From a candidate division WOR-3 bacterium (lineage in GTDB: Bacteria; Hydrothermota; Tepidihabitantia; Tepidihabitantales; Tepidihabitantaceae), in the NCBI GenBank assembly GCA_039801365.1, contig JBDRUN010000001.1, forward strand, positions 37,711 to 101,710: a stretch of DNA of 64,000 nucleotides. Reading direction: 5' to 3'. The notes under the pieces are model-generated. The model ran no database searches. It worked only from the letters and a program-made list of their open reading frames with translations, and was not told where the DNA came from. Shown here one piece after another: positions 52,249-64,000 of this stretch (position 1 is the stretch's first letter; each line of letters opens with the position of its first letter). A program made the translations under genes and the position numbers.

Positions 52249-53844
52249 TCATTGACCCTCCTGCTTGCTGTTTCGCGACAGGCTCCGCAGTCGCGCCACT
52301 GCCTCGGCCACGAGCCTGCCCTGTTCTTCAATCGCGTCCAGCAATTGCTCCGGCGTGCGGGTATCTTCCACGACTTTGCGGTTCGGGTTCACCGCCTTCA
52401 AGTCGAGCCCACGTTTCTCCAGTTCCTCCCGCGTCACGGTCCAGCTCCTCTCGCTCTCGCCCCGCTGGGGCAGAAGCCGAAAGAAGTCCTCGAACCGGTC
52501 CCGGGTCAAGGGCTTCTTCTTTGTCACCTTCACGTCCGAGATGTCGTAGTACCAGACTTTCTCGGTCGGCCTGCCCTTAGTGAAGAACAATAGGTTCGCC
52601 TTCACGCCCGCACCCGCGTTGATGAACGTGCCCGGCGGCAGGCTGATGATGGCCCAAAGGTCGCACTCGTCCAATAGCTTCCGCTTGGTCTGCACGAAAG
52701 CGTTCTCGTTGGTGCGGAAGAGCACACCTTCATCCAGCACGATACCGGCGCGCCCGCCCGGCTTCAGGGAGTCAATTACATGCTGGAGAAACAGCACCTG
52801 CGTGGCGCTGGTTCTGTAAGCAAAACGGGTCTGAGCCTCTTTGCTCTCCTTCCCGCCGAATGGCGGATTCATCAGGATGACATCGTACAGGGAAGGCGCT
52901 CCGGTAAACAGACCGCCATATATTTCCTGTCCGGTCAGGGTATTGCCGTGCCAGATGTGCGGTTCGTCAATCTCGTGCAGGACCAGATTGGCAAGCGCAA
53001 TCGGATAAATGGTGTTGTCCTTCTCCCGGCCAAAGAAGGTTCTACGTTTGAGGATATCCATCTGGTCAGCGGTGACGTTCTCGCCCAGGCGGGCCCGGAT
53101 GTGCGCGTAGGTCTCGGCCAGGAATCCGCCGGTTCCGCAACACGGGTCGTACACCGTTTCTCCTACCTTCGGGTCTATTCCGCGCACCAGCACCCGGATA
53201 ACCTCGCGCGGTGTGAAAAACTGGCCGCCGTCATTGTTCTTCTCGCCCATCTTGAGCAAAAGACCTTCATACACCTGAGACAAGGCGAACACGTGGGTCT
53301 GGTCAACCGTCTCGTGCGACAGCTCGTTCACCTTGTCTAGCACGTCCAGGAGGTTCCGCTCGGTATCAATTCGCGTGCGCTCCACGCCGGAGAAGATTTC
53401 CGAGATAACCTTCTGCCGCGGGGTGGCGTTCGGCTTGTCCTTCAGCGCTTTCAGGTGTGGAATCAGGTCCCGGTTCACGAAGTCGTAGAATGCGTTGGTC
53501 GCGCCTTCCACCAGCGCCTTACGCTTCTTTCCGTCGGGCGCGGCCCAGTCGCGCCAGCGGTAGGGTGGTTTCAAAGACGGCGTGAACGGCACGGACAGCG
53601 CCTCGGCCTCAATCGCCTCGCGCTGTTCGCGCTCATCCAGAATCCGCAGGAAAAGAATCCAGGTCAGCTCCGGCACGTACTGCATCGCACCGGCGCAATT
53701 CGACCGGCGCATAATGTCGCAGATGGACTTCACAGCGGAATTGACCGAAGCGGGAGAGGCTAGGAGTTTTGGATTTTGGGTTTTGGATTTTGGATTGAGA
53801 GGGGAACGAGGACGATTCTGGGTTTTGGATTTTGGACTAGGCAT
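52249..53844 (-). CDS. hsdM: Type I restriction-modification system methyltransferase subunit HsdM
   Basis: HsdM_N-like …SICDIMRRSNCAGAMQYVPELTWILFLRILDE…. SAM motif DPCCGTGGFL. Catalytic NPPFG (ILMNPPFGGKE). The first roughly 40 codons (PKSKTQN…) are encoded by the TTTTGGA repeat array, so the start could instead be an internal codon. Confidence 0.85.
   Translation of the reverse strand: MPSPKSKTQNRPRSPLNPKSKTQNPKLLASPASVNSAVKSICDIMRRSNCAGAMQYVPELTWILFLRILDEREQREAIEAEALSVPFTPSLKPPYRWRDWAAPDGKKRKALVEGATNAFYDFVNRDLIPHLKALKDKPNATPRQKVISEIFSGVERTRIDTERNLLDVLDKVNELSHETVDQTHVFALSQVYEGLLLKMGEKNNDGGQFFTPREVIRVLVRGIDPKVGETVYDPCCGTGGFLAETYAHIRARLGENVTADQMDILKRRTFFGREKDNTIYPIALANLVLHEIDEPHIWHGNTLTGQEIYGGLFTGAPSLYDVILMNPPFGGKESKEAQTRFAYRTSATQVLFLQHVIDSLKPGGRAGIVLDEGVLFRTNENAFVQTKRKLLDECDLWAIISLPPGTFINAGAGVKANLLFFTKGRPTEKVWYYDISDVKVTKKKPLTRDRFEDFFRLLPQRGESERSWTVTREELEKRGLDLKAVNPNRKVVEDTRTPEQLLDAIEEQGRLVAEAVARLRSLSRNSKQEGQ
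53766..53838 (+). repeat. (TTTTGGA)n-type tandem array (GTTTTGGATTTTGGGTTTTGGATTTTGGATT … GGGTTTTGGATTTTGGAC)
   Basis: Seen in sequence between the Fic stop and the hsdM start. It overlaps the N-terminal codons of the long hsdM ORF. Confidence 0.8.
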
Positions 53845-53850
53845 GACGGT

Positions 53851-54855
53851 TCACCTCAACAGATACTTACCCGATCTCCGCGTACCGGAGCGCTTTACCA
53901 GCCCGGCCGCAACAAGCGGTTTCAGAAGGTCCAGGGCACCCTGTTTCGAGACGCCGAGCGCCTCGCGTATCTCGCGCGGGCTCATCGCCTGGCGGTCGCG
54001 CAGGAGCGCCAGCAACTGCTCCTGTTTTGGCCGCAGCACCACTTTCTCCGTGCTCTGGTCGGCGGCCAGCCGCTGGATGCGCAACCAGACCCGTTCCAGC
54101 ACGAGTCGCAACCCGGTGGCGCAGTATTCCAGCCAGCCGGTGAGGTTGCCGCCCTGCCGGCCGACCTCACGCAGGGCCTCGTAGTAACGCGGTCGGTCCT
54201 CCCAGAAGTACTCGTCCACCGAAAAGATGTGATGCGTGTCGAAACCGCGGCGATAAAGCTCCCACAGGGAAAGAAGCCGGCCGACCCGGCCATTGCCGTC
54301 GCCGAATGGATGAATGTCCTCGAAACGATGATGCACGATGGGGGACGAAATGACCGCAGACCAGTCCCGCGCCGAGCCGTTCCACCAGTCCAAAAGGTCG
54401 GACATCAGAGGTTCAACTTGCTCGGGTGGCGGCGGCTTGTGCGGCCCAACCCATACCTGGATGCGGCGATATGCGCCCTCCTGGCCCTGGTCCATCACAC
54501 CCCGGCAGGCAATTAGATGAAGCCGTAGAATGTCCCGGTGCACGAGCCGGCGCTTGGCCGCGTGCGTCTCGATGTAACGCAGGGCCGCGAAGTAGTTCAG
54601 CACCTCCTGCCGCGAACGGTCCGCAATGGCCGGAACGTCACGGCCTTGCGCGAGGTCACGTACCTGCTCCTGAGTCAAAGGATTCCCCTCGATGGCAGTC
54701 GAACTGTGCGTGTTTCTCACCCTTGCGTCTTGCTGAAGCCGGGGAATCCACGGCACCTGCACGGTTGCGGCCAGCACCCTTGCCCGCAGTGCGGCGATTT
54801 CCTCAATGAGCGCAACCAACCGCGCCGTTACCTCAAACGCCGGTACGTATGCCAC
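53851..54855 (-). CDS. Fic/DOC family protein (putative AMPylase) with C-terminal wHTH
   Basis: Canonical Fic motif HPFGDGNGRVGR. C-terminal winged-helix (…MSPREIREALGVSKQGALDLLKPLVAAGLV…). Confidence 0.85.
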   Translation of the reverse strand: MAYVPAFEVTARLVALIEEIAALRARVLAATVQVPWIPRLQQDARVRNTHSSTAIEGNPLTQEQVRDLAQGRDVPAIADRSRQEVLNYFAALRYIETHAAKRRLVHRDILRLHLIACRGVMDQGQEGAYRRIQVWVGPHKPPPPEQVEPLMSDLLDWWNGSARDWSAVISSPIVHHRFEDIHPFGDGNGRVGRLLSLWELYRRGFDTHHIFSVDEYFWEDRPRYYEALREVGRQGGNLTGWLEYCATGLRLVLERVWLRIQRLAADQSTEKVVLRPKQEQLLALLRDRQAMSPREIREALGVSKQGALDLLKPLVAAGLVKRSGTRRSGKYLLR

Positions 54856-54913: not shown

Positions 54914-54942
54914 ATTTTGGATTTTGGGTTTTGGATTTTGGA
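54914..54942 (+). repeat. (TTTTGGA)n-type tandem array
   Basis: AATTTTGGATTTTGGGTTTTGGATTTTGGA, immediately 3' of the four-helix-bundle gene. Confidence 0.8.
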
Positions 54943-55299
54943 TTAGGCGCGGGAGCGTCTCAAAGTCTTGATGGATGCTACCGTCATCGCCAAGATGTTG
55001 TCGGCTTCAGCCATCAGGTTTTCCGTATCCGGCTCGGATGCAAGGCGAGCGGCGACGAGCAGGTCCAGCCAATAGATGACCTCATCGGCTTCCTCCTCAA
55101 CGATTGCCAGTTTGGCAAGCATATCGGCCCGTGACCGGGCCCGGCAGGCCGCGCGGTAATTCGCGCCGACCGACGTGGCGCACCGCAATAGTTGCCGGCC
55201 GATGACGTCTGCGCAACGGCTCCGCGGCAGCTCATCAACCAGCCGGATGGCCTCCAACCCGAGTTTTCTGGTCCTATCCTTGAACTCCTGCTCAGTCAC
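54943..55299 (-). CDS. Four-helix-bundle protein (TIGR02436 family; '23S rRNA intervening-sequence protein')
   Basis: 118 aa. …EAIRLVDELPRSRCADVIGRQLLRCATSVGANYRAACRARSRADMLAKLAIVEEEADEVIYWLDL… is the characteristic pattern. Confidence 0.8.
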   Translation of the reverse strand: MTEQEFKDRTRKLGLEAIRLVDELPRSRCADVIGRQLLRCATSVGANYRAACRARSRADMLAKLAIVEEEADEVIYWLDLLVAARLASEPDTENLMAEADNILAMTVASIKTLRRSRA

Positions 55300-55352: not shown

Positions 55353-55436
55353 CAATCCAAAATCCAAAATCGGCAATCCAAAATCATCTGCGCCCCCATT
55401 TCCGCCAATCCAAAATCCCCAATCCAAAATCCAAAA
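55353..55436 (-). repeat. (TTTTGGA)n-type array in inverted orientation (CCAAAATCCAAAATC … CCAAAATCCAAAATC)
   Basis: Seen in sequence between the hsdS stop and the four-helix-bundle start. It is the reverse complement of the 54914–54942 array. Confidence 0.8.
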
Positions 55437-55997
55437 TCAGATGTCTCCTCTAAACGCCTTCCGCAACAGCGCGGCCGGCAGTTTGTTGATTGTTTCCAAC
55501 TGGGCCTCAAGGGCCAGTCGGTGCTTCTCGGCCTCGGCCATACGTTCATTCAGCATCCCCGCAATCCGCCTCTGCTCGGAAAGGGGAGGAAGGGGAAGGA
55601 CAATCTCAGCCGCGACCTTCTGGTTCAGCTTGGCCCTCGTCGCACCGGCGACCATATCGCCCACATCGGGCCGGATTCGGATGGCCAGCAAGCAGTAGGC
55701 AAAGTCAATGCTATCAGGTCTTGGTCTGAGCACGTGAGCGTGGTTGTTGACCCAGTACTTGCCAGCCACAGCATAGGCGATAGGTCTGTCAGCGGATCCA
55801 AAGAACCCGCCGTCCTCGGCGAGCAATATCAGCGGTTCATCGAAAAGGTATCCGTCTATCCAACCCACTTGGCCATTGGCACCATAGTAGGGGTATAGCT
55901 CTGCCTGTTTCTTTCCCGCGATGCGCCGCATTCTGTCGGGTTCATTGACGGGCACTCTCCGGCCGTCTAAGAACTCGCACACCTCTCCCAGCTTCAC
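55437..55997 (-). CDS. hsdS: Type I RM specificity subunit HsdS (single target-recognition domain, half-size)
   Basis: 186 aa. One TRD followed by the conserved coiled-coil region …LPPLSEQRRIAGMLNERMAEAEKHRLALEAQLETINKLPAALLRKAF. Confidence 0.75.
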   Translation of the reverse strand: MKLGEVCEFLDGRRVPVNEPDRMRRIAGKKQAELYPYYGANGQVGWIDGYLFDEPLILLAEDGGFFGSADRPIAYAVAGKYWVNNHAHVLRPRPDSIDFAYCLLAIRIRPDVGDMVAGATRAKLNQKVAAEIVLPLPPLSEQRRIAGMLNERMAEAEKHRLALEAQLETINKLPAALLRKAFRGDI

Positions 55998-56046: not shown

Positions 56047-56955
56047 CTATGCCTCCTCGTAGCTGCGCTGCAGCAAGGTCTGTGCCTTCTGCAGGCTTGT
56101 CTGGTCGGTAACCACTACTTCCAAGTCGCCCGTGCCCCAATGACCAATCTGGCTGACGTCGCGGGTGAACCCAGTCTCCAGCTTCACCGACTTGGGGTCG
56201 AGCTTGAGATACAGGGTAAGCGCCTTGCGGCTGAATTCCACGCAGGCGAAGTTCTTGATGCGGCGGAAGGCCACGTAGAGCTTGAGTTGCTTCTCGGTCA
56301 CGTCGTCGCCCAGGGCAAGTATGAACGCGCGCAGAGAGTCGTAAAGGTCGCGCATCTGAGGACTCATTTCCCTTAGCCAAGTGGCAACGGTCTTGTCTGT
56401 CCCGCCGGCTGAAACGCGGCTGCGGCGGCGGACAGACGCCGGCTCTTCGCCTGTCGCTCTGTAGACAAGGTCGAGTGCCAAGAGCTCGTCGCCGAACCTT
56501 CGGTAGCGCACCAGTTCCACGTTGCGGCCCATCTGCTTGACCGCGTGTTCGTCGTACTTGGTAAAGTCGGCAGCGATGCAGAGCAGGCGCGGGCCGGTCC
56601 AGTCTATTGCATTGGCCGCCTTCTGCCCCAGTTTCTTCTGTACCAGCAACTGGAACTCGGCCTTGTGGTCGAGAAGCCAGTCCAGGTAGAAAAGGCCCTG
56701 GTTGATGACATTCTCGTTCGTCGCCTTCTTGTATTCGATGATGACCGGGCAGTTGTTCTCGTCTATGCCGAGCGTGTCAATGCGGCCGGCGTGGCTCTTG
56801 CCGGTAGAGTATTCCGAGTCAAGGAAGCGAACCCCGAGCATCGTCTCCAGGTTCTTTTCGACGACGTCCTGAAGTGATTTCTCAAGCGGCGTTGCCTTGC
56901 CCGGCAGTTCGGTCGCCTTGTTGCCGCTCAGGCGGAAGAGTTTGATTTCGCTCAT
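56047..56955 (-). CDS. PD-(D/E)xK nuclease-fold protein with C-terminal domain of unknown function
   Basis: N-terminal …GRIDTLGIDENNCPVIIEYKK… looks like the D…(D/E)xK core. Total 302 aa. It is embedded in the RM locus. Confidence 0.5.
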   Translation of the reverse strand: MSEIKLFRLSGNKATELPGKATPLEKSLQDVVEKNLETMLGVRFLDSEYSTGKSHAGRIDTLGIDENNCPVIIEYKKATNENVINQGLFYLDWLLDHKAEFQLLVQKKLGQKAANAIDWTGPRLLCIAADFTKYDEHAVKQMGRNVELVRYRRFGDELLALDLVYRATGEEPASVRRRSRVSAGGTDKTVATWLREMSPQMRDLYDSLRAFILALGDDVTEKQLKLYVAFRRIKNFACVEFSRKALTLYLKLDPKSVKLETGFTRDVSQIGHWGTGDLEVVVTDQTSLQKAQTLLQRSYEEA

Positions 56956-57002: not shown

Positions 57003-57088
57003 GTTACAGATTACAGCAAGAAAGTTACAGGTTACAGAGTTACAGGTCACAGCAGAAAGGTTACAAGTTACAGGGTTACAGGTTACAG
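57003..57088 (+). repeat. About 10 tandem copies of the GTTACAG heptamer with short spacers
   Basis: Seen in sequence, e.g. GTTACAG-ATTACAG-caagaaa-GTTACAG-GTTACAG-aGTTACAG. It ends 2 bp before the stop of the second four-helix-bundle gene. Confidence 0.85.
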
Positions 57089-57090
57089 GA

Positions 57091-57576
57091 CTATTGGTCA
57101 TTGGCTTTGCGTTTGCGTTGTTCGGCCAGTTCGTCTAGAATCCGACTCCTTTCTTCCGCGGCTGCCACCGCCTGTTGTTGTCTTGCGTGTTGTTTCTGGC
57201 CCGGCATTCCGGAGCCCTGAAGGTATTGGATGAATCTGTATAGCATCGCGCTGAGCCGGCGGCATTGCGCACTCGCCGAATCGCAGTCTTTGGCGCTGAT
57301 ATAGCCCTGGTCACGCGCAATGCCAAGCTGGGCCCGGACTTCGCCGCAGGAGCCTTTGGCGACGTAGAGAAACTGCACGAGTTCCTGCGTCGAACCGCGT
57401 TCGTGCCCTTCCGCGATGTTGGACATGATGGAGACCGCGGCCCGGCGAATCTGGTCAACAAGGCTGCGGTCCCTGGTGAATGCCGGTTGCCGCGTGAGAG
57501 CATAGACCTGGTTGGTCAGTTCTCGCGCCTGCTGGTAGACCTTCAGTTCCTCGAACTTCTGTACCGTTTCTTTCAT
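57091..57576 (-). CDS. Four-helix-bundle protein (TIGR02436 family), second copy
   Basis: Start reset to MKETVQKFEELKVYQQARELTNQVYALT…. The core …IRRAAVSIMSNIAEGHERGSTQELVQFLYVAKGSCGEVRAQL… matches the family. Confidence 0.8.
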   Translation of the reverse strand: MKETVQKFEELKVYQQARELTNQVYALTRQPAFTRDRSLVDQIRRAAVSIMSNIAEGHERGSTQELVQFLYVAKGSCGEVRAQLGIARDQGYISAKDCDSASAQCRRLSAMLYRFIQYLQGSGMPGQKQHARQQQAVAAAEERSRILDELAEQRKRKANDQ

Positions 57577-57583
57577 CTCCCCC

Positions 57584-57616
57584 TCTCTGTAACTCTGTAA
57601 CCCTGTAACCTGTAAC
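57584..57616 (-). repeat. GTTACAG heptamer array in inverted orientation (plus strand reads CTGTAAC x4)
   Basis: Seen in sequence immediately 5' of the second four-helix-bundle gene. It is the reverse complement of the 57003–57088 array. Confidence 0.8.
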
Positions 57617-57622
57617 ACATCT

Positions 57623-58075
57623 CTACGCCGCAAACAGTCTGACCTTGGTTTCTTTGAGTATTTTGGCCGGCTTGCCCAGTTCGGCTAGCGCTTTCACTCC
57701 GCCGGCACGTTTGACCTTCGGGGTCTGGAATACTTCCGGGTTTTCCAGTCCTTCGGTGCCCGCAAGGGCAAACTGGGCAGCAAGGGCTTTGAGGGTAGCG
57801 GCCGCGTTTTCGGGCAGGCTGGCAAGCCACTCTGCATGTTTATAGGAGAATGCCTCAGCCCGCTCTGCGCGCGTGCGCGGAGCAAGGCCGTAGCCGAGTT
57901 CGGCCAGGACGTCGTACAGGTCATAGTCGTCCATTTCTTCCACGCGCTGCACCAGCGAGGGTGAGTAGCCGGCGCTAACGAGGGCATCGATGAGTGCGCG
58001 GCGGCGGGCAGGTTCTACCAAGCGGTCGCGGAACGCCTCGAGCGTCGGCGCTTCGGCCACGAGTTTGGCGGCCAT
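57623..58075 (-). pseudogene. hsdR: Detached C-terminal domain of type I restriction enzyme HsdR (EcoEI_R_C-like)
   Basis: 150-aa ORF. …VEEMDDYDLYDVLAELGYG… resembles the HsdR C-terminal domain. It is separated from the helicase fragment by 9 bp and a frame break. Confidence 0.55.
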
Positions 58076-58084
58076 CCGTTCCTT

Positions 58085-59098
58085 CTATTCTTCTACTGTG
58101 ACGGGTATTGCCCTGCCATCCACTTCGGTCAGAATGTATTTGCCGGCCGGGGTGACGCGGACCTCGAATCCTTCTACGCGGATGGGCGGTTCAGGCGGAG
58201 GCGAAGGCTCGCGCTTTTCGCTTGATCTAGTCGGTCGGGACAGGAACTCTTCGCCGAATAGCCGAGTAGCGTTGGTGTAGTCGTAGACCGTGAATGCTAG
58301 TTTGCCCGAAGGCGGGTCAATGCGCGTGCCCCGGCCTACCATCTGGTAGAAAGCGATAGGCGATTTGACATACTTAAAGAAGGCGATGTTGCGCACACAG
58401 GGCACGTCCACGCCGGTGGTCAACAGGTCAACGGTGGTGGCGATGAAGTGGTGGCGCGAGGCACCGCGGAAGTCAGGAAGCTGGTCGTTACCCGAAGCAG
58501 AGGCGGTGCATTTGAAAGCGTAGGGTTCTGCCCGGGGGTGGCCGTGCTCTTTGCACCAGCGGGCGTACAGGTTGTTCATTTCCGCAGCCACATCGTCCGC
58601 ATGTCGGTCGCGGGTGCAGAAGATGATTGTTTTCTGTTCCGGGCCGCCGGTTTCGCACAGATAGGCAAAGAGGTCGGCGCACATGGCAGACACCCGGTCG
58701 GGCAGCAGAATGCGGTTTTCGTAGTCGGTTTTTTCGTAGAGCTGCCTCAACCGGTCGGAAGAAACCGGCTGGCCGGTGTCCGCATCAACCGGTTCGCGGG
58801 CCAAAATGTCGTCAATGGTGATACCGGTGTCGTCCAGGTTGACCCGGCCTTTCTGTATCAGGCAGGCGGCAAGGTATCCGTCTTCTATCGCCTGGGCCAT
58901 GTCGTATTCGTACACCGGCTCGCCGAAGTACGCAAGGTTGTCAGCGGTAATCTTCGCGTCTGCCTGCGCCTCGCGGGTCTTCTCGGTAATCTTGAGCGAA
59001 CGGGGCGTAGCGGTGAGTCCGATGTGTACCGCATCCGGGTTACGGGTAAGTACCTGAGACCATTTGCCCCAGGCTGAGCGATGGCATTCGTCAATCAC
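58085..59098 (-). pseudogene. hsdR: HsdR helicase-core fragment (starts at motif II; N-terminal nuclease domain and motif I are missing)
   Basis: The ORF begins MIDECHRS (DECH box). It then runs GLTATP (motif III) and the …QMVGRGTR… arginine finger (motif VI). In-frame stops lie immediately upstream, and no ORF follows for about 330 bp. Confidence 0.7.
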
Positions 59099-59426
59099 AA
59101 TGTGGCTGAAGTGATTCTCCGGATAGAACTCGGTGAGGAAGCTGGCGTCGTCGTCTTCGCGGGCAATACCCAGAGTTTGGTAGGTGGCGACGTGGATGCG
59201 GGCGTTGCGGGCGTGGTTCTTGCCGTCCGGGTAGCAAGTAACTCAATGACGATCGTTCCCCTCTGACCTATTCTGCTTCGGACTCAGCTTTCTCCTCCAA
59301 TTGAGAACAGTACTAACCCACGGTTTCGACTTTCTTCAGCTCAGAAAGCGGGGGCGTCCCTGGTATTCCCAAGACCTGACCCCAACCGGCCGGCTGAGAA
59401 TCATCCGCTGTGTCACAAGAACTTTC

Positions 59427-60224
59427 CTACTTCGGCGGCCAGAAGACACCGAGCACCAAGAAACTCCGTGGGTGCAGAAATACATTGCCTACATAGAACC
59501 ACGTGTCCTTGTCCGACCTCAGCATCTCGCCTTCCCACTTCTGTCTGACCTTGCGCAGCACGTCCTGCTCGCAGTTCTCTCGGTCCCGGAGTGTGCGGTA
59601 CAACTGCATCAACTCCCAGTCAATGACGGACAGGTCGTGTCCTCGGCAGCGTTCCTCGCCTGCGCACCTGAAGCGGTAGCCAAAACGGTAGGGTATGGGT
59701 TCAATTGCCTGCTTGGCTCCGGCAAAGGCGTCAAGTTGGTCATAGAACGCAGCCCTGAACTCAGCGCTGGTAGTATCAACCGGCTCGGCGTAGAACCTCA
59801 CGTTCTCCGGCTTGACCAAGCCCAGCGATGTGGCCGACTTTGCCTGCTCGTCCTTCAGGGCGCAGAGCGACGCGGCCCTAAGCGGCAATACGATCTCACG
59901 CCTTCTGGCCCACTTGCGCTTGGTGTCCCACGCCTGCTCGACAACCCTGATGCTGTTGCGGTCTACACGGAAGCTCTCCGGACGGGTGTCTTTCGACGTT
60001 CGGCTCACTCGAGCCTCGATGACGGAGTACTTGCTGAACCGCTGCCACGAGTTCAAGTCCCGGAAGGGCACCGGATAGAGCCTAATCCACCGTTTCGCTT
60101 CCAGGTCAATGCCGGCTACGCACACGGTCTCGGTGTATTTCCGGCTCGGATTGGGATAGGTCTTGACCGTGACGAGGATGCGGCGGGTCTGCCAGTCCAA
60201 AACTACAAGTGCCGGACCACGAAC
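59427..60224 (-). CDS. Hypothetical protein (defence-island gene, no recognised family)
   Basis: Long ORF (…VKTYPNPSRKYTETVCVAGIDLEAKRWIRLYPVPFRDL…). The annotated start overlaps the DUF488 gene by 109 bp, so I propose an internal GTG. The start remains uncertain. Confidence 0.4.
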   Translation of the reverse strand, partial: VRGPALVVLDWQTRRILVTVKTYPNPSRKYTETVCVAGIDLEAKRWIRLYPVPFRDLNSWQRFSKYSVIEARVSRTSKDTRPESFRVDRNSIRVVEQAWDTKRKWARRREIVLPLRAASLCALKDEQAKSATSLGLVKPENVRFYAEPVDTTSAEFRAAFYDQLDAFAGAKQAIEPIPYRFGYRFRCAGEERCRGHDLSVIDWELMQLYRTLRDRENCEQDVLRKVRQKWEGEMLRSDKDTWFYVGNVFLHPRSFLVLGVFWPPK

Positions 60225-60721
60225 TGATGGCCGTTGCGTCCCGCCAAGACCAGAGCCAACAGCGACCTGTGACACTGCTTCGGGTCGCGCTCGTAGCACA
60301 GGAGACAACACGGCTTGGCCACAGCCATCTGGTAGAGAGATTCCACAGAGTCATCCACCGTGGCGACGTAGGCAAGATACTGACGGGCAAGTTCCTCGAA
60401 GCTGCCAGTCATCCTGTACTGCTTACGCACAGCTACAGGTGTTCCCAACTCGCGCAGGCTCACGTATTGGATACCATTCAAAGGAAGGAAGGTTGCCAGA
60501 GCCGACTTGGAAAAGCCCCGCCTGCGGCTCAGCGGCAATTGACGAACGTCCGCCACGACGGCCACCTTTTCCTGCTTCAGCACAGCAATGAACTCATCGG
60601 TCGTCCGCCCTTCATAACCGGCTGTCAACAGCGGAAACACGGGGCACGCCACGCCACAGCCTACTCCTATCCGACCGTCGGTCAAGCCCGTCCGGTTATC
60701 GATGACACCAGGGGTTGTCAA
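60203..60721 (-). CDS. DUF488-family protein
   Basis: …TAGYEGRTTDEFIAVLKQEKVAVVADVRQLPLSRRRGFSKSALATFL…GIQYVSLRELG… fits the DUF488 (YeaO-like) signature. Confidence 0.65.
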   Translation of the reverse strand: MTTPGVIDNRTGLTDGRIGVGCGVACPVFPLLTAGYEGRTTDEFIAVLKQEKVAVVADVRQLPLSRRRGFSKSALATFLPLNGIQYVSLRELGTPVAVRKQYRMTGSFEELARQYLAYVATVDDSVESLYQMAVAKPCCLLCYERDPKQCHRSLLALVLAGRNGHQFVVRHL

Positions 60722-60934
60722 AGAACCGGCCGGTGTCCATTCTTCACACTCAGCTTCCCCCAGGTCGGCCGCGTGTCAAACAGAGAAAGGGTTCCAGGGG
60801 CGAGAGGCCAAGGGTTCGGTTTTGGGAAGAGGGAGCAGGACGCTGGGGCTAGTAACTGTCGGCCCGCAAAGCGCAAGATTCAGAACCTGACCCCGGGTTC
60901 CTCACTGTTGCGGACCCCGAAGCTGTAATACCGC

Positions 60935-63658
60935 TCAGTCCTGTACGGTGAACTCTCCTCCAAGCCGCAGCTCGCGGAGGGCAGCGTTGAGTTGCTGGCG
61001 GACGGCTGGGTCCTTGAGCTTGGCCTTGATGAAGACCTCGATCTCGACGCCATCGGCGCCGGCCAGTCTGGCCAGAACGCGATGGCTGAGCAGATTCCAC
61101 ATGTCGCGTGGGATGTTGCCACGCCACTCGACCGTCGTCGGCTGGACGGTCTTGGCTTCCGGCTTCGGCGGCTCAATGATGACGGTCGTATCGCCGCCCG
61201 GCGGCGCGAAGATGTCGCCCGGCTCCGTTACGCCGCCTGTCTGCGTACCGGCCTTCGCGACCTTCGCCCGCTCGGGCAAGAGTAGAAACGTTTCGTGGTC
61301 GAACTTGACCTCAGCCGGGTCAACGGTCTCTCTGAACCATATTCTGTGCAAGTGCAGCTCGTCCTTGCCGACACCCATGCCCAACGCGCCCTGCGGTACG
61401 GCCTTCTGTATCAGCGCCAATAGAGCTTCGTCGGCGCGCTCCAGCCGCGTGAGCGACCCTTGGAAGAACGCCGCCTTCAGACTGGCGAGCGACCACGCGC
61501 CTGTCTTCTTCAACGCTTGGGGCCACTTTCGCTCAACGTACGTCGGCCCGATTTCCCGGTTCAGCAAGTTGGCTTGGCGCATCCGGGACAGTATCGCGCC
61601 AGTGATGCCGCGTGCTTCGCTGGGATGCATCATCCCCAACGTCAGCTTCTGCAGGGACCCTGCCTTTGCGTCCCAATACAGAAGGCTGCTGTATAGACTC
61701 CAGACTCTCTCTTCAACCCTGGAGTACGCCTTCTTGACCTCTGTCCTCGCCATCTGCTGCTCGTGTGGCTCCAGTTCGCCCATGCTCCCTGCTTCCACCT
61801 CGTCGGCGATGACGGTCCACGCCATCCAGTCAGCGACGTCCTTCTGCAGGCCGGTGGCAGACTCAGGCATCACCCATAAGACTGCGCCCGGATACTGGCG
61901 TGGGGACTGACCGCAGTTCACAGTCCAGGCATTCAACTGCTCAGTCTGCCTCTGATCCAATTCGCTGTCAGGCGTCCCGACCACCAGCCGCAGCACCGGC
62001 CGGTCGGATACCTCGGCCGAGTCCTTGGGGAAGAACTGGGCCTCAATCTTAGCGTTCTTGCGGAACACCTGCGTGACCACGGCGCGCGTCTGCTTCTCCA
62101 CGTCGGCCGGGTTCAGGCCAGCCTTGCGGTCGGCGTGTATCTTGCGCAAGGTGGGCGAGCAGCCAAACTTCCACCCACCGGTCCCGACCGGACGCAAATA
62201 GTAGCAGCGGCTGACCAGGGCTTGGACGGCAGTATCTACAAGCGTTGTCTCGGTTTCCGCATCTCCAAGCGCGAACCGCAGGTCGGAAAGCGTCGCTACT
62301 TTGTCGGAAACCATGCCGCCACATGACTCAAACAGTAGCGCTGTGGCCACGCGCTGGTGCAGGTTCGTCCTGCCGACGGTGTCGCTCAGCTCCTTGTCCA
62401 GAGCAACCGCAACTGCGTTCTCACCGGAGATGTCATAGTTGATAGCGTGTTCCAGCCGCGTTTCGCCCATCTGTTCCAACACCTTGGACCGAAATTCCCG
62501 ATTACTCAGCGGTGCGGAGCCAAGGGTTATCAGTGGCTCTCTGCGTGCGCAGGCATAGCCTTCCCTGGCCGCTATGGCAATCCACATTCCAAGCATCACC
62601 AAAGTACCACGAGTCTGCTGAAATGAGGGCAGCGAAGCCCACTTGCGCTGGAACACGGTCAAAGTGCTAGGGTGAAACGGATAACATGCCTCAAATCGTT
62701 TCCTTATGACTTCTTCACCAAAATTGGCGAACTCCGCGGGCAGCCGATCCCGGCGTTCGAACACCCAGCGGGCGTACTGCCGTGCCGCGGCCTGCTGCAT
62801 GCTCTTGCGGCCCGGGTCTTCAAACAGCCTGCGCCGCACAATCTCGGAAATCTCCTCTGGGTCATTCGCCAGAAGCGGCTGGCCCACCCGGTCAGTCAGC
62901 TTCGACAGCTTGATTTGCCACTCGCATAGCTCATCGGTCATCTCGGTCGGCGACGCAGGCAGGCTGAACACGCCAACCGCATTCTGCCGGGCCGTTAGCG
63001 CCGTAGTGAGATTCTGCAGGAACGAATGGAACTGAGTAGCCAGATTCCCATAGCGGCCGATGAAGTTGAGCGTCTCATCAAACAAGAACAGAATCGGCGC
63101 GTCAACCAGGGCAAAGAGTTTCTCCAGGACTTCTGTGCCGGGTGCCCGCTGCTTGAAATCCTCGCCGATGAGCTTCCGGCCAGCGTCGCCGGCCAGTTGC
63201 ACCGCCACGTCAATCCATGGCGTCTCGCTGCCTGACTTCTGGTCCCAGGAGTTACCCACGAACACGGCGACCCGCGCCTTCGGCACCTGCTTCAGGCCTA
63301 TGGCAGAAAGCAGCTCCGGCACACCGGGATATGCTTGGGCCGCTGGCCCGGACTTGGCCAGATGATAGAGCGCCGCCAACGTGTGAGTCTTGCCGCCGCC
63401 GAACTGGGTGAGCATGGAAAGCACCGGCGCGGTGCCGGAAGTCTCGCCGGCCAGTCGGCGCAGCACTTTGCCGCAGTAGTCGGTAACAAGCGCCTTGGTG
63501 AAGTACGTGCGGCCAAAGAATTGCTCCGGGTTCTTGTAGTCATCCGGCGCTCTGCCCGAGACTATCTGGTCCAGATGCACCGCGAACTCGCTCGGGTCCA
63601 GTGACCGGCCCTCGCGCAATTCCTTACGTGGTGTTGCTACCTTGTACCATGGTTCCAT
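60935..63658 (-). CDS. DUF499-family ATPase (predicted defence-system NTPase)
   Basis: 907 aa. The N-terminus MEPWYKVATPRKELREGRSLDPSEFAVHLDQIV…FFGRTYFT… and the P-loop FGGGKTHT are what I recall as the DUF499 hallmark. Confidence 0.75.
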   Translation of the reverse strand: MEPWYKVATPRKELREGRSLDPSEFAVHLDQIVSGRAPDDYKNPEQFFGRTYFTKALVTDYCGKVLRRLAGETSGTAPVLSMLTQFGGGKTHTLAALYHLAKSGPAAQAYPGVPELLSAIGLKQVPKARVAVFVGNSWDQKSGSETPWIDVAVQLAGDAGRKLIGEDFKQRAPGTEVLEKLFALVDAPILFLFDETLNFIGRYGNLATQFHSFLQNLTTALTARQNAVGVFSLPASPTEMTDELCEWQIKLSKLTDRVGQPLLANDPEEISEIVRRRLFEDPGRKSMQQAAARQYARWVFERRDRLPAEFANFGEEVIRKRFEACYPFHPSTLTVFQRKWASLPSFQQTRGTLVMLGMWIAIAAREGYACARREPLITLGSAPLSNREFRSKVLEQMGETRLEHAINYDISGENAVAVALDKELSDTVGRTNLHQRVATALLFESCGGMVSDKVATLSDLRFALGDAETETTLVDTAVQALVSRCYYLRPVGTGGWKFGCSPTLRKIHADRKAGLNPADVEKQTRAVVTQVFRKNAKIEAQFFPKDSAEVSDRPVLRLVVGTPDSELDQRQTEQLNAWTVNCGQSPRQYPGAVLWVMPESATGLQKDVADWMAWTVIADEVEAGSMGELEPHEQQMARTEVKKAYSRVEERVWSLYSSLLYWDAKAGSLQKLTLGMMHPSEARGITGAILSRMRQANLLNREIGPTYVERKWPQALKKTGAWSLASLKAAFFQGSLTRLERADEALLALIQKAVPQGALGMGVGKDELHLHRIWFRETVDPAEVKFDHETFLLLPERAKVAKAGTQTGGVTEPGDIFAPPGGDTTVIIEPPKPEAKTVQPTTVEWRGNIPRDMWNLLSHRVLARLAGADGVEIEVFIKAKLKDPAVRQQLNAALRELRLGGEFTVQD

Positions 63659-63670
63659 TGTCCATCCTCT

Positions 63671-64000
63671 CTACTTGCCCGCCTGCTTCGTTGCGGGCAG
63701 GCCCATTAGCGCCTGTAAGCCCTCAAGCCAACGCCGCTCCTCACTCTTCTCATGATACAACGCGGTCAACGCGAGCGCGAGCCGCTCGAACCTGCGGCCA
63801 CGCTTCCGCTCATCCTCCAGCAACTGCCGCAGCAGGGTGGTCTGTCCGGCTCGGAACAGGAGCATCGCCACGTGCAGCCGGTCCAGAGTCGTCTGCTCCT
63901 CGATGCGACCGGCGACTCCGCGTTTGGCAGCTACGACCTGCCGCTGCACCTCTTCTTTACCAAAGAGCTTCAACTGCGGACTCGGTAGCGTGAACTCGCG
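63671..64000 (-). CDS. C-terminal part of an upstream gene running off the window end
   Basis: The reading frame stays open to position 64000. The last roughly 110 aa have no recognisable motif. It is positioned where a partner, e.g. a methyltransferase, would be expected upstream of the DUF499 gene. Confidence 0.4.
   Translation of the reverse strand, partial: REFTLPSPQLKLFGKEEVQRQVVAAKRGVAGRIEEQTTLDRLHVAMLLFRAGQTTLLRQLLEDERKRGRRFERLALALTALYHEKSEERRWLEGLQALMGLPATKQAGK

Follow-up and report, generated by a model that had tools for sequence, protein, structure and literature searches.

A WOR-3 defence-island interval probably sets the downstream part of an Hma system beside an independent DUF488–DuOB cassette

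Four genes, all on the minus strand, occupy positions 59427-64000 of the window, a 64,000-nucleotide stretch of a candidate division WOR-3 contig, and the question they raise is whether they form one system or more than one. The sequence-only reading had taken them for a single four-gene module, possibly a new arrangement around a DUF499 ATPase, and our reading of the open reading frames confirms four genes, on the minus strand, at the position that it gave. We find it very probable that the interval instead holds two units side by side within a defence island, both of known type. Our full explanation, in which the downstream part of an Hma system lies next to an independent DUF488–DuOB cassette and each has the role proposed below, is likely. 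Neither unit is new by name, as the first is an Hma system and the second is covered by PADLOC PDC-M19 and by Pfam DUF488 and DuOB; that the region is related to defence, as had been suggested, is upheld. The features are as follows.

63671..64000, minus strand: 3′ end of hmaB (DUF1156-type N6-adenine methyltransferase), the last 109 codons plus stop, frame open to the window edge
60935..63658, minus strand: hmaC, DUF499-family AAA+ ATPase, 907 aa, apparently intact
60653..60934: non-coding gap of 282 nt between hmaC and the DUF488–DuOB cassette
60203..60652, minus strand: DUF488 gene (PDC-M19A-like), 149 aa (start GTG 60652) or 145 aa (start GTG 60640)
59427..60200, minus strand: DuOB gene (PDC-M19B), 257 aa from TTG 60200
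58085..59195, minus strand: 5′-truncated remnant of a type I hsdR, given as context, which bounds the cassette downstream

The identification of a DUF499 ATPase proved correct. The hmaC product matches Pfam DUF499 (1.5e-8) and the PADLOC HmaC profile (2.3e-98, 328.6 bits, residues 1-728), its translation contains a Walker A (FGGGKTH) and a Walker B (LFLFDET) motif, and it is of the ORC/Cdc6-like AAA+ type, with full-length homologues of 905-927 aa at 54-87% identity. GenBank lists it as MEO0080743.1, a 'DUF499 domain-containing protein' encoded by a candidate division WOR-3 MAG. Against the PADLOC 'DUF499' model it reaches only 55.6 bits, and against NCBIfam DUF499_antiphage 93.2 bits, below the cutoff of 1200. 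Upstream of hmaC, the gene that was thought to continue past the window does so, its frame being open to the edge. This fragment by itself has no family match in Pfam, PADLOC or NCBIfam; its identity is 82% with residues 891-989 of HmaB from locus L082 and 81% with residues 891-998 of HmaB from locus L081, the neighbours of the two closest HmaC homologues. These two proteins match PADLOC HmaB at 1e-105 and 2e-115, respectively, and the one from L081 carries Pfam DUF1156. The view that the DUF499 gene has unusual partners is mistaken, because a DUF1156 methyltransferase, represented by its C-terminus, lies directly upstream.

Hma and the BREX-related (BR) systems have been described previously (PMC8565338, PMC11232893, PMC12839542), and Hma (PADLOC, Payne et al. 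2021) corresponds to the type-1 DUF499-centred BR system (NAR 2026, PMC12839542). Four related loci, whose HmaC proteins are 57-87% identical to that of the window, have the order HmaA (SNF2 + NOV_C), inserts, HmaB (DUF1156), inserts, HmaC, with HmaA seen in the three that extend far enough, and in each of the four the gene downstream of HmaC is a different one. The window resembles Hma in its strong HmaC match, in the co-oriented HmaB C-terminus directly upstream and in a gene order as in the four relatives; unlike them, it has no genes embedded between hmaB and hmaC, the hmaB stop lying 12 nt from the hmaC start. The set that the sequence-only reading had in mind is that of Type-2 BR systems (DUF499, DUF1156, DUF3780 and a helicase), with which the window shares the ATPase superfamily and the kind of methyltransferase partner. 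It differs from Type-2 BR in that its HmaC falls far under the DUF499_antiphage cutoff and in that neither the window nor any of the four related loci has a DUF3780 gene. Judged by sequence, the first unit belongs to an ordinary Hma system, of which it is the downstream part (the end of HmaB and a complete HmaC), and by analogy with the related loci the HmaA helicase-nuclease probably lies further upstream, outside the window. Following published proposals for Hma and BR systems, HmaB would mark host DNA, HmaC would assemble or scan, and HmaA would nick or cut unmodified invader DNA.

Beyond the 282-nt gap the remaining two genes had been described as overlapping by about 100 bp, with a downstream product of 265 aa. 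Neither statement holds. The DuOB gene starts at TTG 60200, 2 nt past the DUF488 stop codon (TAG, 60205-60203), and yields a protein of 257 aa, an identical copy of which is present in a public collection; its homologues are mostly 255-270 aa long and their alignments begin at the TTG-60200 start. A product of 265 aa would have to begin at residue 30 of the long open reading frame, which is GTT and no start codon. The GenBank call is longer still (282 aa, from GTG 60275), but the overlapped DNA codes for the conserved DUF488 C-terminus, and the alternative-frame GTG falls in the DNA of its conserved LLC motif. The same 73-nt over-extension occurs in 4 of 62 other loci. With the start at TTG 60200 the overlap is therefore an artefact of start-codon over-calling, and we reject a real overlap of the two genes.

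The DUF488 assignment stands as well, at 1.1e-28 (100.7 bits, cutoff 22.2) against Pfam DUF488 and 32.4 bits (cutoff 27) against DUF488-N3a, the 'active subclade'. The PADLOC PDC-M19A match (6e-30) covers the C-terminal half only of each of two profiles (151-293 of 294 positions in one, 91-234 of 234 in the other), and the window protein is therefore a short form. A sequence search of the PDB with DUF488 returned nothing meaningful; in its structure model the fold is PTP-like and a loop carries a cysteine, with an invariant Cys ending a strand and an invariant Cys-His-Arg opening the next helix. The protein thus resembles the Pfam DUF488 and DUF488-N3a families both in score, exceeding both cutoffs, and in its modelled fold, but its loop is C-X9-R and not the C-X5-R of canonical PTPs. 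On the model, DUF488 is predicted to be a cysteine-dependent enzyme with a PTP/rhodanese-phosphatase fold. Burroughs and Aravind are said to have defined the DUF488/DUF488-N3a and DuOB families in 2023; they reportedly placed DUF488 in the rhodanese-phosphatase superfamily and are said to have predicted DNA-end processing in conflict systems.

The downstream protein had been called unplaceable, yet it matches PADLOC PDC-M19B over nearly the whole profile (3.9e-61, positions 3-262 of 269). Like members of the Pfam DuOB family (PF22557) it has two OB folds, although unlike them it stays under the family threshold (21.3 bits, cutoff 27); precomputed PF22557 matches are present on several of its close homologues. 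The AlphaFold model (pLDDT 90.6) places two OB-fold barrels in a single polypeptide and resembles OB-fold ssDNA-binding proteins only, among them HIN-200/AIM2, RPA, baculovirus LEF-3, RecO, PriB and MCM10. The best of these matches align 70-120 of the 257 residues at 5-14% identity, and no fold match spans the whole protein at high score; the likeness to tandem-OB DNA sensors and SSBs is one of fold and not of family membership. A PDB sequence search with the DuOB profile gave nothing meaningful. Among the 24 residues that are invariant in the homologue alignment are C27, C179 and H188; a fourth putative ligand is C185 in most sequences and is shifted to C182 in four, as expected for a metal site. 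Alignment and model together point to a probable zinc site, and DuOB is predicted from them to be a zinc-stabilised binder of ssDNA or DNA ends.

Of 80 DuOB loci from species-representative genomes, 72 have a co-oriented DUF488 gene immediately upstream and 4 have a convergent one downstream; a contig end truncates three more, and the last has no DUF488. The two genes are thus adjacent in 76 of the 77 informative loci. Spacers within the pair are mostly -4 to +24 nt, and no third conserved gene was found around it in the 80 loci. DUF488 and DuOB diverge together, their pairwise identities being correlated at r = 0.72, a value reached by 0 of 999 Mantel permutations. Besides the co-directional layout there is a convergent one, seen in actinobacteria, phages and proteobacterial plasmids. 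The pair moves among phyla, plasmids and temperate phages, and its spread is patchy, with 187 confirmed matches among about 185,000 species genomes for the pattern used. The majority of DuOB copies are chromosomal; the gene also sits on 24 plasmids, of which 11 are conjugative, and in both proteobacterial plasmids inspected DUF488 adjoins it.

These data weigh heavily on the proposal that all four genes make one system, a variant DUF499 locus where DUF3780 and the helicase have given way to DUF488 and the 257-aa protein. The genes are consecutive and all four co-oriented, as such a system would have them, and Hma loci are known hot spots for other genes. HmaC, however, is found within 10 kb of DuOB in 0 of the 80 loci, which speaks against both a single module and a new DUF499 arrangement, and a check for the same four-gene order in relatives failed: none of the four loci with close HmaC homologues has a DUF488 or DuOB gene. 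Upstream, hmaC has kept its canonical methyltransferase partner, the pair is found alone on phages and plasmids, and the gap of 282 nt in front of the cassette, against 2 nt inside it, fits a separate unit. We therefore reject DUF488 and DuOB as Hma accessories, there being no co-occurrence with HmaC, and consider a single four-gene system exceedingly improbable. Across positions 58900-64000 we found neither a match to sigma-70 or terminator consensus sequences nor an Rfam family.

On the two-unit reading, the DUF488–DuOB pair of the window is a cassette of adjacent, co-oriented PDC-M19A and PDC-M19B matches. PDC-M19, a phage-defence candidate in PADLOC, corresponds to CAS_00089 in Payne et al. 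2024, found by 'guilt by embedding' and defined from cassettes inside RM, BREX and DISARM loci, and its recurrence in such loci is the reason for the designation. The window cassette agrees with this definition in abutting other defence genes and departs from it in lying between two systems and not inside an intact one: it has Hma on one side and, on the other, a decayed type I RM locus in which SoFic and PDC-S18 are found as well. The translation of the hsdR remnant (TYQTLG...DECH) starts abruptly near 59190, past a stop codon, and covers positions 290-548 of the 807-position PADLOC REase_I profile, and EcoEI_R_C, the C-terminal part of HsdR, is a separate open reading frame at 57623-58075. 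The HsdR of locus L073 was too divergent to map the remnant. With hsdR both 5′-truncated and split, embedding of the cassette in an intact RM system is rejected here. In the literature searched we found no experimental test of PDC-M19 for anti-phage activity, and the description of the pair as uncharacterised is, in the biochemical sense, apt.

The pair is also carried by seven temperate Gordonia phages of cluster CZ1, where DuOB directly follows the immunity repressor in the variable slot that separates the repressor gene from the integrase gene, and only some otherwise similar CZ1 phages have it in this lysogeny slot. In this position it resembles the prophage-mediated defence cassettes of other actinobacteriophages, such as CarolAnn gp43/44 and Sbash gp30/31, which share the slot, but its proteins are unrelated to theirs. 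Genes 42 and 43 of Nymphadora were listed among candidate prophage defence or toxin-antitoxin (TA) genes by Pope et al. 2017, and no defence test of them was found in the literature searched. Gene 42 is a DUF488 gene, and its RefSeq label 'HipA toxin' is a misannotation.

What might such a cassette do? We are evenly divided on whether it has an anti-phage or anti-MGE role. In the mechanism that we propose, a zinc ion would bridge both OB folds and keep DuOB rigid; DuOB would recognise ssDNA or DNA ends on an element that is invading or replicating, and would bring the DUF488 enzyme, a cysteine phosphatase or phosphotransferase, to a DNA or RNA terminal phosphate. This phosphate step may then block ligation, circularisation or priming, or trigger abortive infection. 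Such a specific end-phosphatase mechanism is, on present evidence, rather unlikely to be right in its details. The wider proposal that PDC-M19 is an autonomous immune system, which would pair a zinc-braced double-OB sensor of ssDNA or of invading genome ends with removal or transfer of terminal phosphates by a cysteine phosphatase-fold enzyme, and so block ligation, circularisation or priming without cutting DNA, would also serve prophages and plasmids in superinfection exclusion and would represent a mechanism new to prokaryotic defence, is speculative and quite improbable.

An immune role has to be weighed against others, and against it stands the make-up of the surroundings: defence or mobilome genes are about a tenth or fewer of 149 near neighbours in 45 loci (an uncontrolled count), and many neighbours are housekeeping genes. 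The pair could be an accessory of nucleic-acid repair or end healing, in which a DNA-end phosphatase with an SSB-like partner maintains the DNA of the genomes and mobile elements that carry it and has no immune function. In favour of this are the housekeeping neighbours, the OB-fold matches of DuOB to proteins of replication and repair such as RPA, RecO, PriB and MCM10, the likeness of the phosphatase fold to that of end-processing enzymes, and the wide occurrence of the DUF488 family. A maintenance function sits poorly, however, with so patchy a distribution and the lack of conserved synteny, with a variable lysogeny slot in only some CZ1 phages, with repeated embedding in RM, BREX and DISARM loci and with the position of the window cassette between two defence systems, and we regard it as unlikely. 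The small, tightly spaced two-gene layout and the presence on conjugative plasmids and prophages would suit a toxin-antitoxin or addiction module serving to stabilise mobile elements, with DUF488 the probable toxin, its partner the neutralising protein and phage defence secondary. The listing of Nymphadora 42/43 as a candidate TA pair and an AbrB/MazE-family gene near the pair on a Pseudomonas plasmid point the same way. That listing, though, seems to derive from the 'HipA toxin' annotation of gene 42, neither protein has a toxin or antitoxin family match in Pfam, NCBIfam or PADLOC, the convergent layout is unusual among type II TA operons, and a highly conserved 257-aa double-OB protein with this many invariant residues is unlike a labile antitoxin. 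An addiction module is accordingly a distinctly doubtful reading.

A counter-defence or signal-erasing device, in which the DUF488 phosphatase destroys nucleotide immune signals or NAD/ADP-ribose derivatives, would draw on DUF4326, said to be a relative in the same superfamily, whose predicted task in viruses is to process the ribose-linked phosphates of ADPr derivatives (PMC9503650), and on the occurrence of the pair on phages and plasmids. In Gordonia phages, however, DuOB comes straight after the repressor in the lysogeny region and does not group with the early lytic genes, the obligatory partner of DUF488 is a double OB fold predicted to bind nucleic acid and not a nucleotide-binding domain, and most copies are chromosomal. 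This reading is very improbable.

The locus itself is ordinary on the preferred two-unit reading: both units should be picked up by standard tools for defence annotation, one as Hma and the other as candidate PDC-M19. The value that is left lies in a sharper picture of PDC-M19, with its strict pairing, joint divergence, two layouts and combination of phosphatase and dual-OB folds, and culturable Gordonia phages with the pair in the lysogeny slot are a ready genetic system. If the cassette is protective, a class of end-modifying enzymes would join the immune effectors, and the large DUF488 family would gain a biochemical function.

Every gene of 59427-64000 lies on the minus strand, and GC content is uniform over the region (0.58-0.64). 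The genes are listed below in the order of transcription.

Genes of the region 59427-64000
enters from past the window edge, stop at 63671, minus: partial frame of 109 codons, putative 3′ end of hmaB
60935-63658, minus: 907-aa ORF, read as hmaC
282 nt: gap between hmaC and the DUF488 gene
ends at 60203, minus: DUF488 ORF
ends at 59427, minus: DuOB (dual-OB protein) ORF, start TTG 60200, 257 aa

The sequence-only reading had taken these genes for a possible new four-gene defence module built around a DUF499 protein. The upstream gene does run past the window as an open frame, and the DUF499 call on the 907-aa protein is borne out, as it matches Pfam DUF499 above the cutoff (1.5e-8, 33 bits, cutoff 23) and, far more strongly, the PADLOC model of HmaC, the DUF499 AAA+ ATPase of Hma systems (2.3e-98, residues 1-728). 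It scores only 55.6 bits with the PADLOC 'DUF499' model and 93 bits with NCBIfam DUF499_antiphage, below that model's cutoff of 1200. The Walker A (FGGGKTH) and Walker B (LFLFDET) motifs are unbroken, full-length HmaC homologues (905-927 aa) are common, and an exact-sequence match, MEO0080743.1, is annotated 'DUF499 domain-containing protein'. We compared four loci whose HmaC homologues are 87, 76, 63 and 57% identical. Three share the order SNF2 + NOV_C helicase, optional inserts, DUF1156 methyltransferase, optional inserts, HmaC, and the fourth ends within the methyltransferase; where scanned, the helicase matches PADLOC HmaA (2e-173) and the methyltransferase HmaB (~1e-105 to 2e-115). The gene 3′ of HmaC is not the same in any two of the four. 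Compared with the final 99-108 residues of the two nearest HmaB proteins, the 109-residue fragment in the window shows 82% and 81% identity; the window thus contains the end of hmaB followed by hmaC, from an ordinary Hma system.

Hma was proposed by Payne et al. 2021, HmaA by itself gave protection from phage T4 (PMC11232893), and the family has been given the new name type-1 DUF499-centred BREX-related system (PMC12839542). The suggestion that the DUF499 partners are unlike the usual set falls away, as the set of DUF1156, DUF3780 and helicase is type 2 of PMC12839542, whereas the window gene is type 1 and has its usual partner, HmaB, directly upstream. Small defence cassettes were seen in relatives' Hma loci: an AAA_15/AAA_21 ATPase (HEC-01A-like) with a 121-aa gene in the hmaA-hmaB interval of L081 (5214-6874), HicA and SocA_Panacea genes embedded in or adjoining L086 (4165-4677, 8304-8795), and DUF2188/PDC-S16 3′ of hmaC in L082 (5773-6006). 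They are examples of the 'embedding' for which Hma loci are known.

The DUF488 call likewise holds (Pfam DUF488 1.1e-28; DUF488-N3a 32.4 bits, cutoff 27), and the protein matches PADLOC PDC-M19A (6e-30). Its neighbour, described earlier as a 265-aa protein that cannot be placed, matches PADLOC PDC-M19B over its full length (3.9e-61), Pfam DuOB below threshold, and PHROG 25907, a family of unknown function. Its true start is TTG 60200; homologues are for the most part 255-270 aa long with the alignment starting at MDWQTRR..., and a public collection holds an identical 257-aa protein. The DUF488 stop (TAG, 60205-60203) leaves a spacer of 2 nt to this TTG, and the overlap of ~100 bp previously seen between the two genes is rejected as an ORF extended through the DUF488 C-terminal coding region. 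Gene callers tend to lengthen DuOB by 73 nt because an alternative-frame GTG lies within the DNA of the conserved DUF488 LLC motif, with no stop before the DuOB gene (window 60203-60275). The GenBank call, an exact-sequence match, is 282 aa long (MEO0080741.1, hypothetical protein, locus tag ABIL25_00405), and the same over-extension occurs in 4 of 62 other loci.

We scanned 185,579 species, each represented by a single genome, with the DuOB alignment, which gave 187 confirmed relatives and 80 loci. The loci belong to Planctomycetota, Omnitrophota, Nitrospirota, Actinobacteria, Verrucomicrobia, Zixibacteria, Firmicutes and one archaeon. DUF488 lies directly upstream on the same strand in 72 of the 80 and directly downstream and convergent in four, while three loci are cut by a contig end and one is without DUF488; the two genes are adjacent in 76/77 informative loci, with spacers of -4 to +24 nt in most. 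Pairwise identities of the two proteins are correlated (r = 0.72, 2016 pairs; 0/999 Mantel permutations equal it), to which shared species phylogeny contributes. Clustering all ORFs within 10 kb at the 80 loci yielded no third conserved gene near DuOB, the next cluster comprising 7 loci. The two-gene DUF488-DuOB cassette is the conserved unit. An HmaC homologue is absent within 10 kb at all 80 DuOB loci, and DUF488 and DuOB are absent from all four HmaC loci; the four-gene module fails because its order is unconserved, the test that the sequence-only reading had itself named. What stands of that proposal is a defence-related region, occupied by Hma and a separate PDC-M19 pair; a DUF499 arrangement that is single or new is not supported. 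The two units belong to kinds already known, Hma with partial experimental support and PDC-M19 as a catalogued candidate, which reached PADLOC via 'guilt by embedding', i.e. as cassettes within RM, BREX or DISARM loci (CAS_00089 in the supplement of that study, in which 145 candidates remained untested).

In the window, a decayed type I RM locus lies downstream of the cassette.

Features of the RM remnant
52249-53844: hsdM, looks intact
53851-54855: SoFic (PADLOC, 4.5e-57)
54943-55299: 23S-rRNA-IVP gene (four-helix-bundle)
55437-55997: hsdS, half-length
56047-56955: PDC-S18 (DUF5655, NucS-like N-terminus; PADLOC, 5.9e-149)
57091-57633: 23S-rRNA-IVP gene (four-helix-bundle)
57623-59195: hsdR

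Homology to hsdR begins abruptly at ~59190 after a stop codon, leaving out ~290 of 807 profile positions (the N-terminal third). A second break, at 58075/58085, makes the EcoEI_R_C C-terminal part an ORF of its own. Besides the RM genes, the remnant holds two further catalogued defence genes, SoFic and PDC-S18. With hsdR truncated and split, and Hma on the other side, the cassette therefore lies at an Hma/broken-RM junction, not within an intact RM system.

Several repeats were observed here. The cassette is enclosed by a 20-nt direct repeat whose imperfect copies (16/20 identical) lie at 59276-59295, 132 nt past the DuOB stop, and 60742-60761, 90 nt ahead of the DUF488 start; it may be an insertion boundary, or chance. 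Heptamer-repeat arrays occupy 53753-53852, 54914-54944, 55353-55437, 57003-57100 and 57587-57616. Inverted arrays bracket both IVP genes, with (TTTTGGA)n and its complement flanking 54943-55299, (GTTACAG)n and its complement flanking 57091-57633, and a third (TTTTGGA)n array in the hsdM-SoFic interval. They resemble the boundaries of small cassettes, or flanks that form RNA stems. A PDC-S18 homologue (55% identical) adjoins a type I hsdR and an orphan DuOB gene in L073 (13961-14899).

In a tblastn search of phage genomes only seven records matched, identical for the two genes, and these are temperate Gordonia terrae CZ1 phages (Nymphadora, BatStarr, Eviarto, TimTam, Herod). In Nymphadora (NC_031061.1) the DuOB gene is gene 43, directly after the immunity repressor (gene 44) and convergent with gene 42 (L083 5825-6277), which encodes a DUF488 protein (Pfam 1.2e-29) labelled 'HipA toxin' in RefSeq; the integrase lies three genes farther along. 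Pope et al. 2017 place prophage-mediated defence genes in this variable region and put forward 'Nymphadora genes 42 and 43' as a candidate TA pair, a label that probably stems from the 'HipA toxin' annotation; our literature search found no test of the two genes. Plasmids too carry the DuOB gene (24, of which 11 are predicted conjugative), and on those of Pseudomonas and Rhizobium the pair is convergent and adjoins transposases and a HEPN/Toprim-associated gene. On Sulfolobus islandicus plasmid pSOG2 (L084 3992-5352) the integrase has beside it a DuOB-like gene of only distant similarity (27% identity, E 1e-19). A 168-aa gene without a match in a Pfam search overlaps the end of the DuOB-like gene and may encode another partner, or a very divergent one, on archaeal conjugative plasmids. 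Defence or mobilome genes among 149 close neighbours at 45 chromosomal loci are AbiEi/AbiEii, type III REase, DruF, mads genes, type I S subunit, AIPR (3), integrases, resolvases and S24 peptidases, interspersed with many housekeeping genes; because it was counted without a matched control, this census gives only mild support to a defence role.

In DUF488 an invariant C119 stands at a predicted strand end and an invariant C127-H128-R129 opens the next predicted helix (D35, R37, S42, R43, K49 and E121 are also invariant). The loop looks like an enlarged P-loop, C-X9-R versus C-X5-R, which fits the rhodanese-phosphatase superfamily in which Burroughs & Aravind 2023 reportedly placed DUF488, with DNA-end or RNA-end processing predicted. 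The nearest viral match of DuOB is the baculovirus SSB LEF-3. Its C27, C179 and H188 are invariant, and the fourth Cys, found at 185 in most sequences, occupies 182 in four of them, a putative metal site for which such a shifting Cys would be the expected pattern. Further invariant residues (E24, R40, R47, K57, D71, R73, R100, D194-W195-E196) point to a specific site for a ligand, and perhaps to catalysis. DuOB would sense ssDNA or DNA ends and place DUF488 on a terminal phosphate. We consider a defence role for the cassette an even call, and this specific mechanism rather improbable. The analysis yields a concrete testable hypothesis for PDC-M19, together with a tractable Gordonia phage model.
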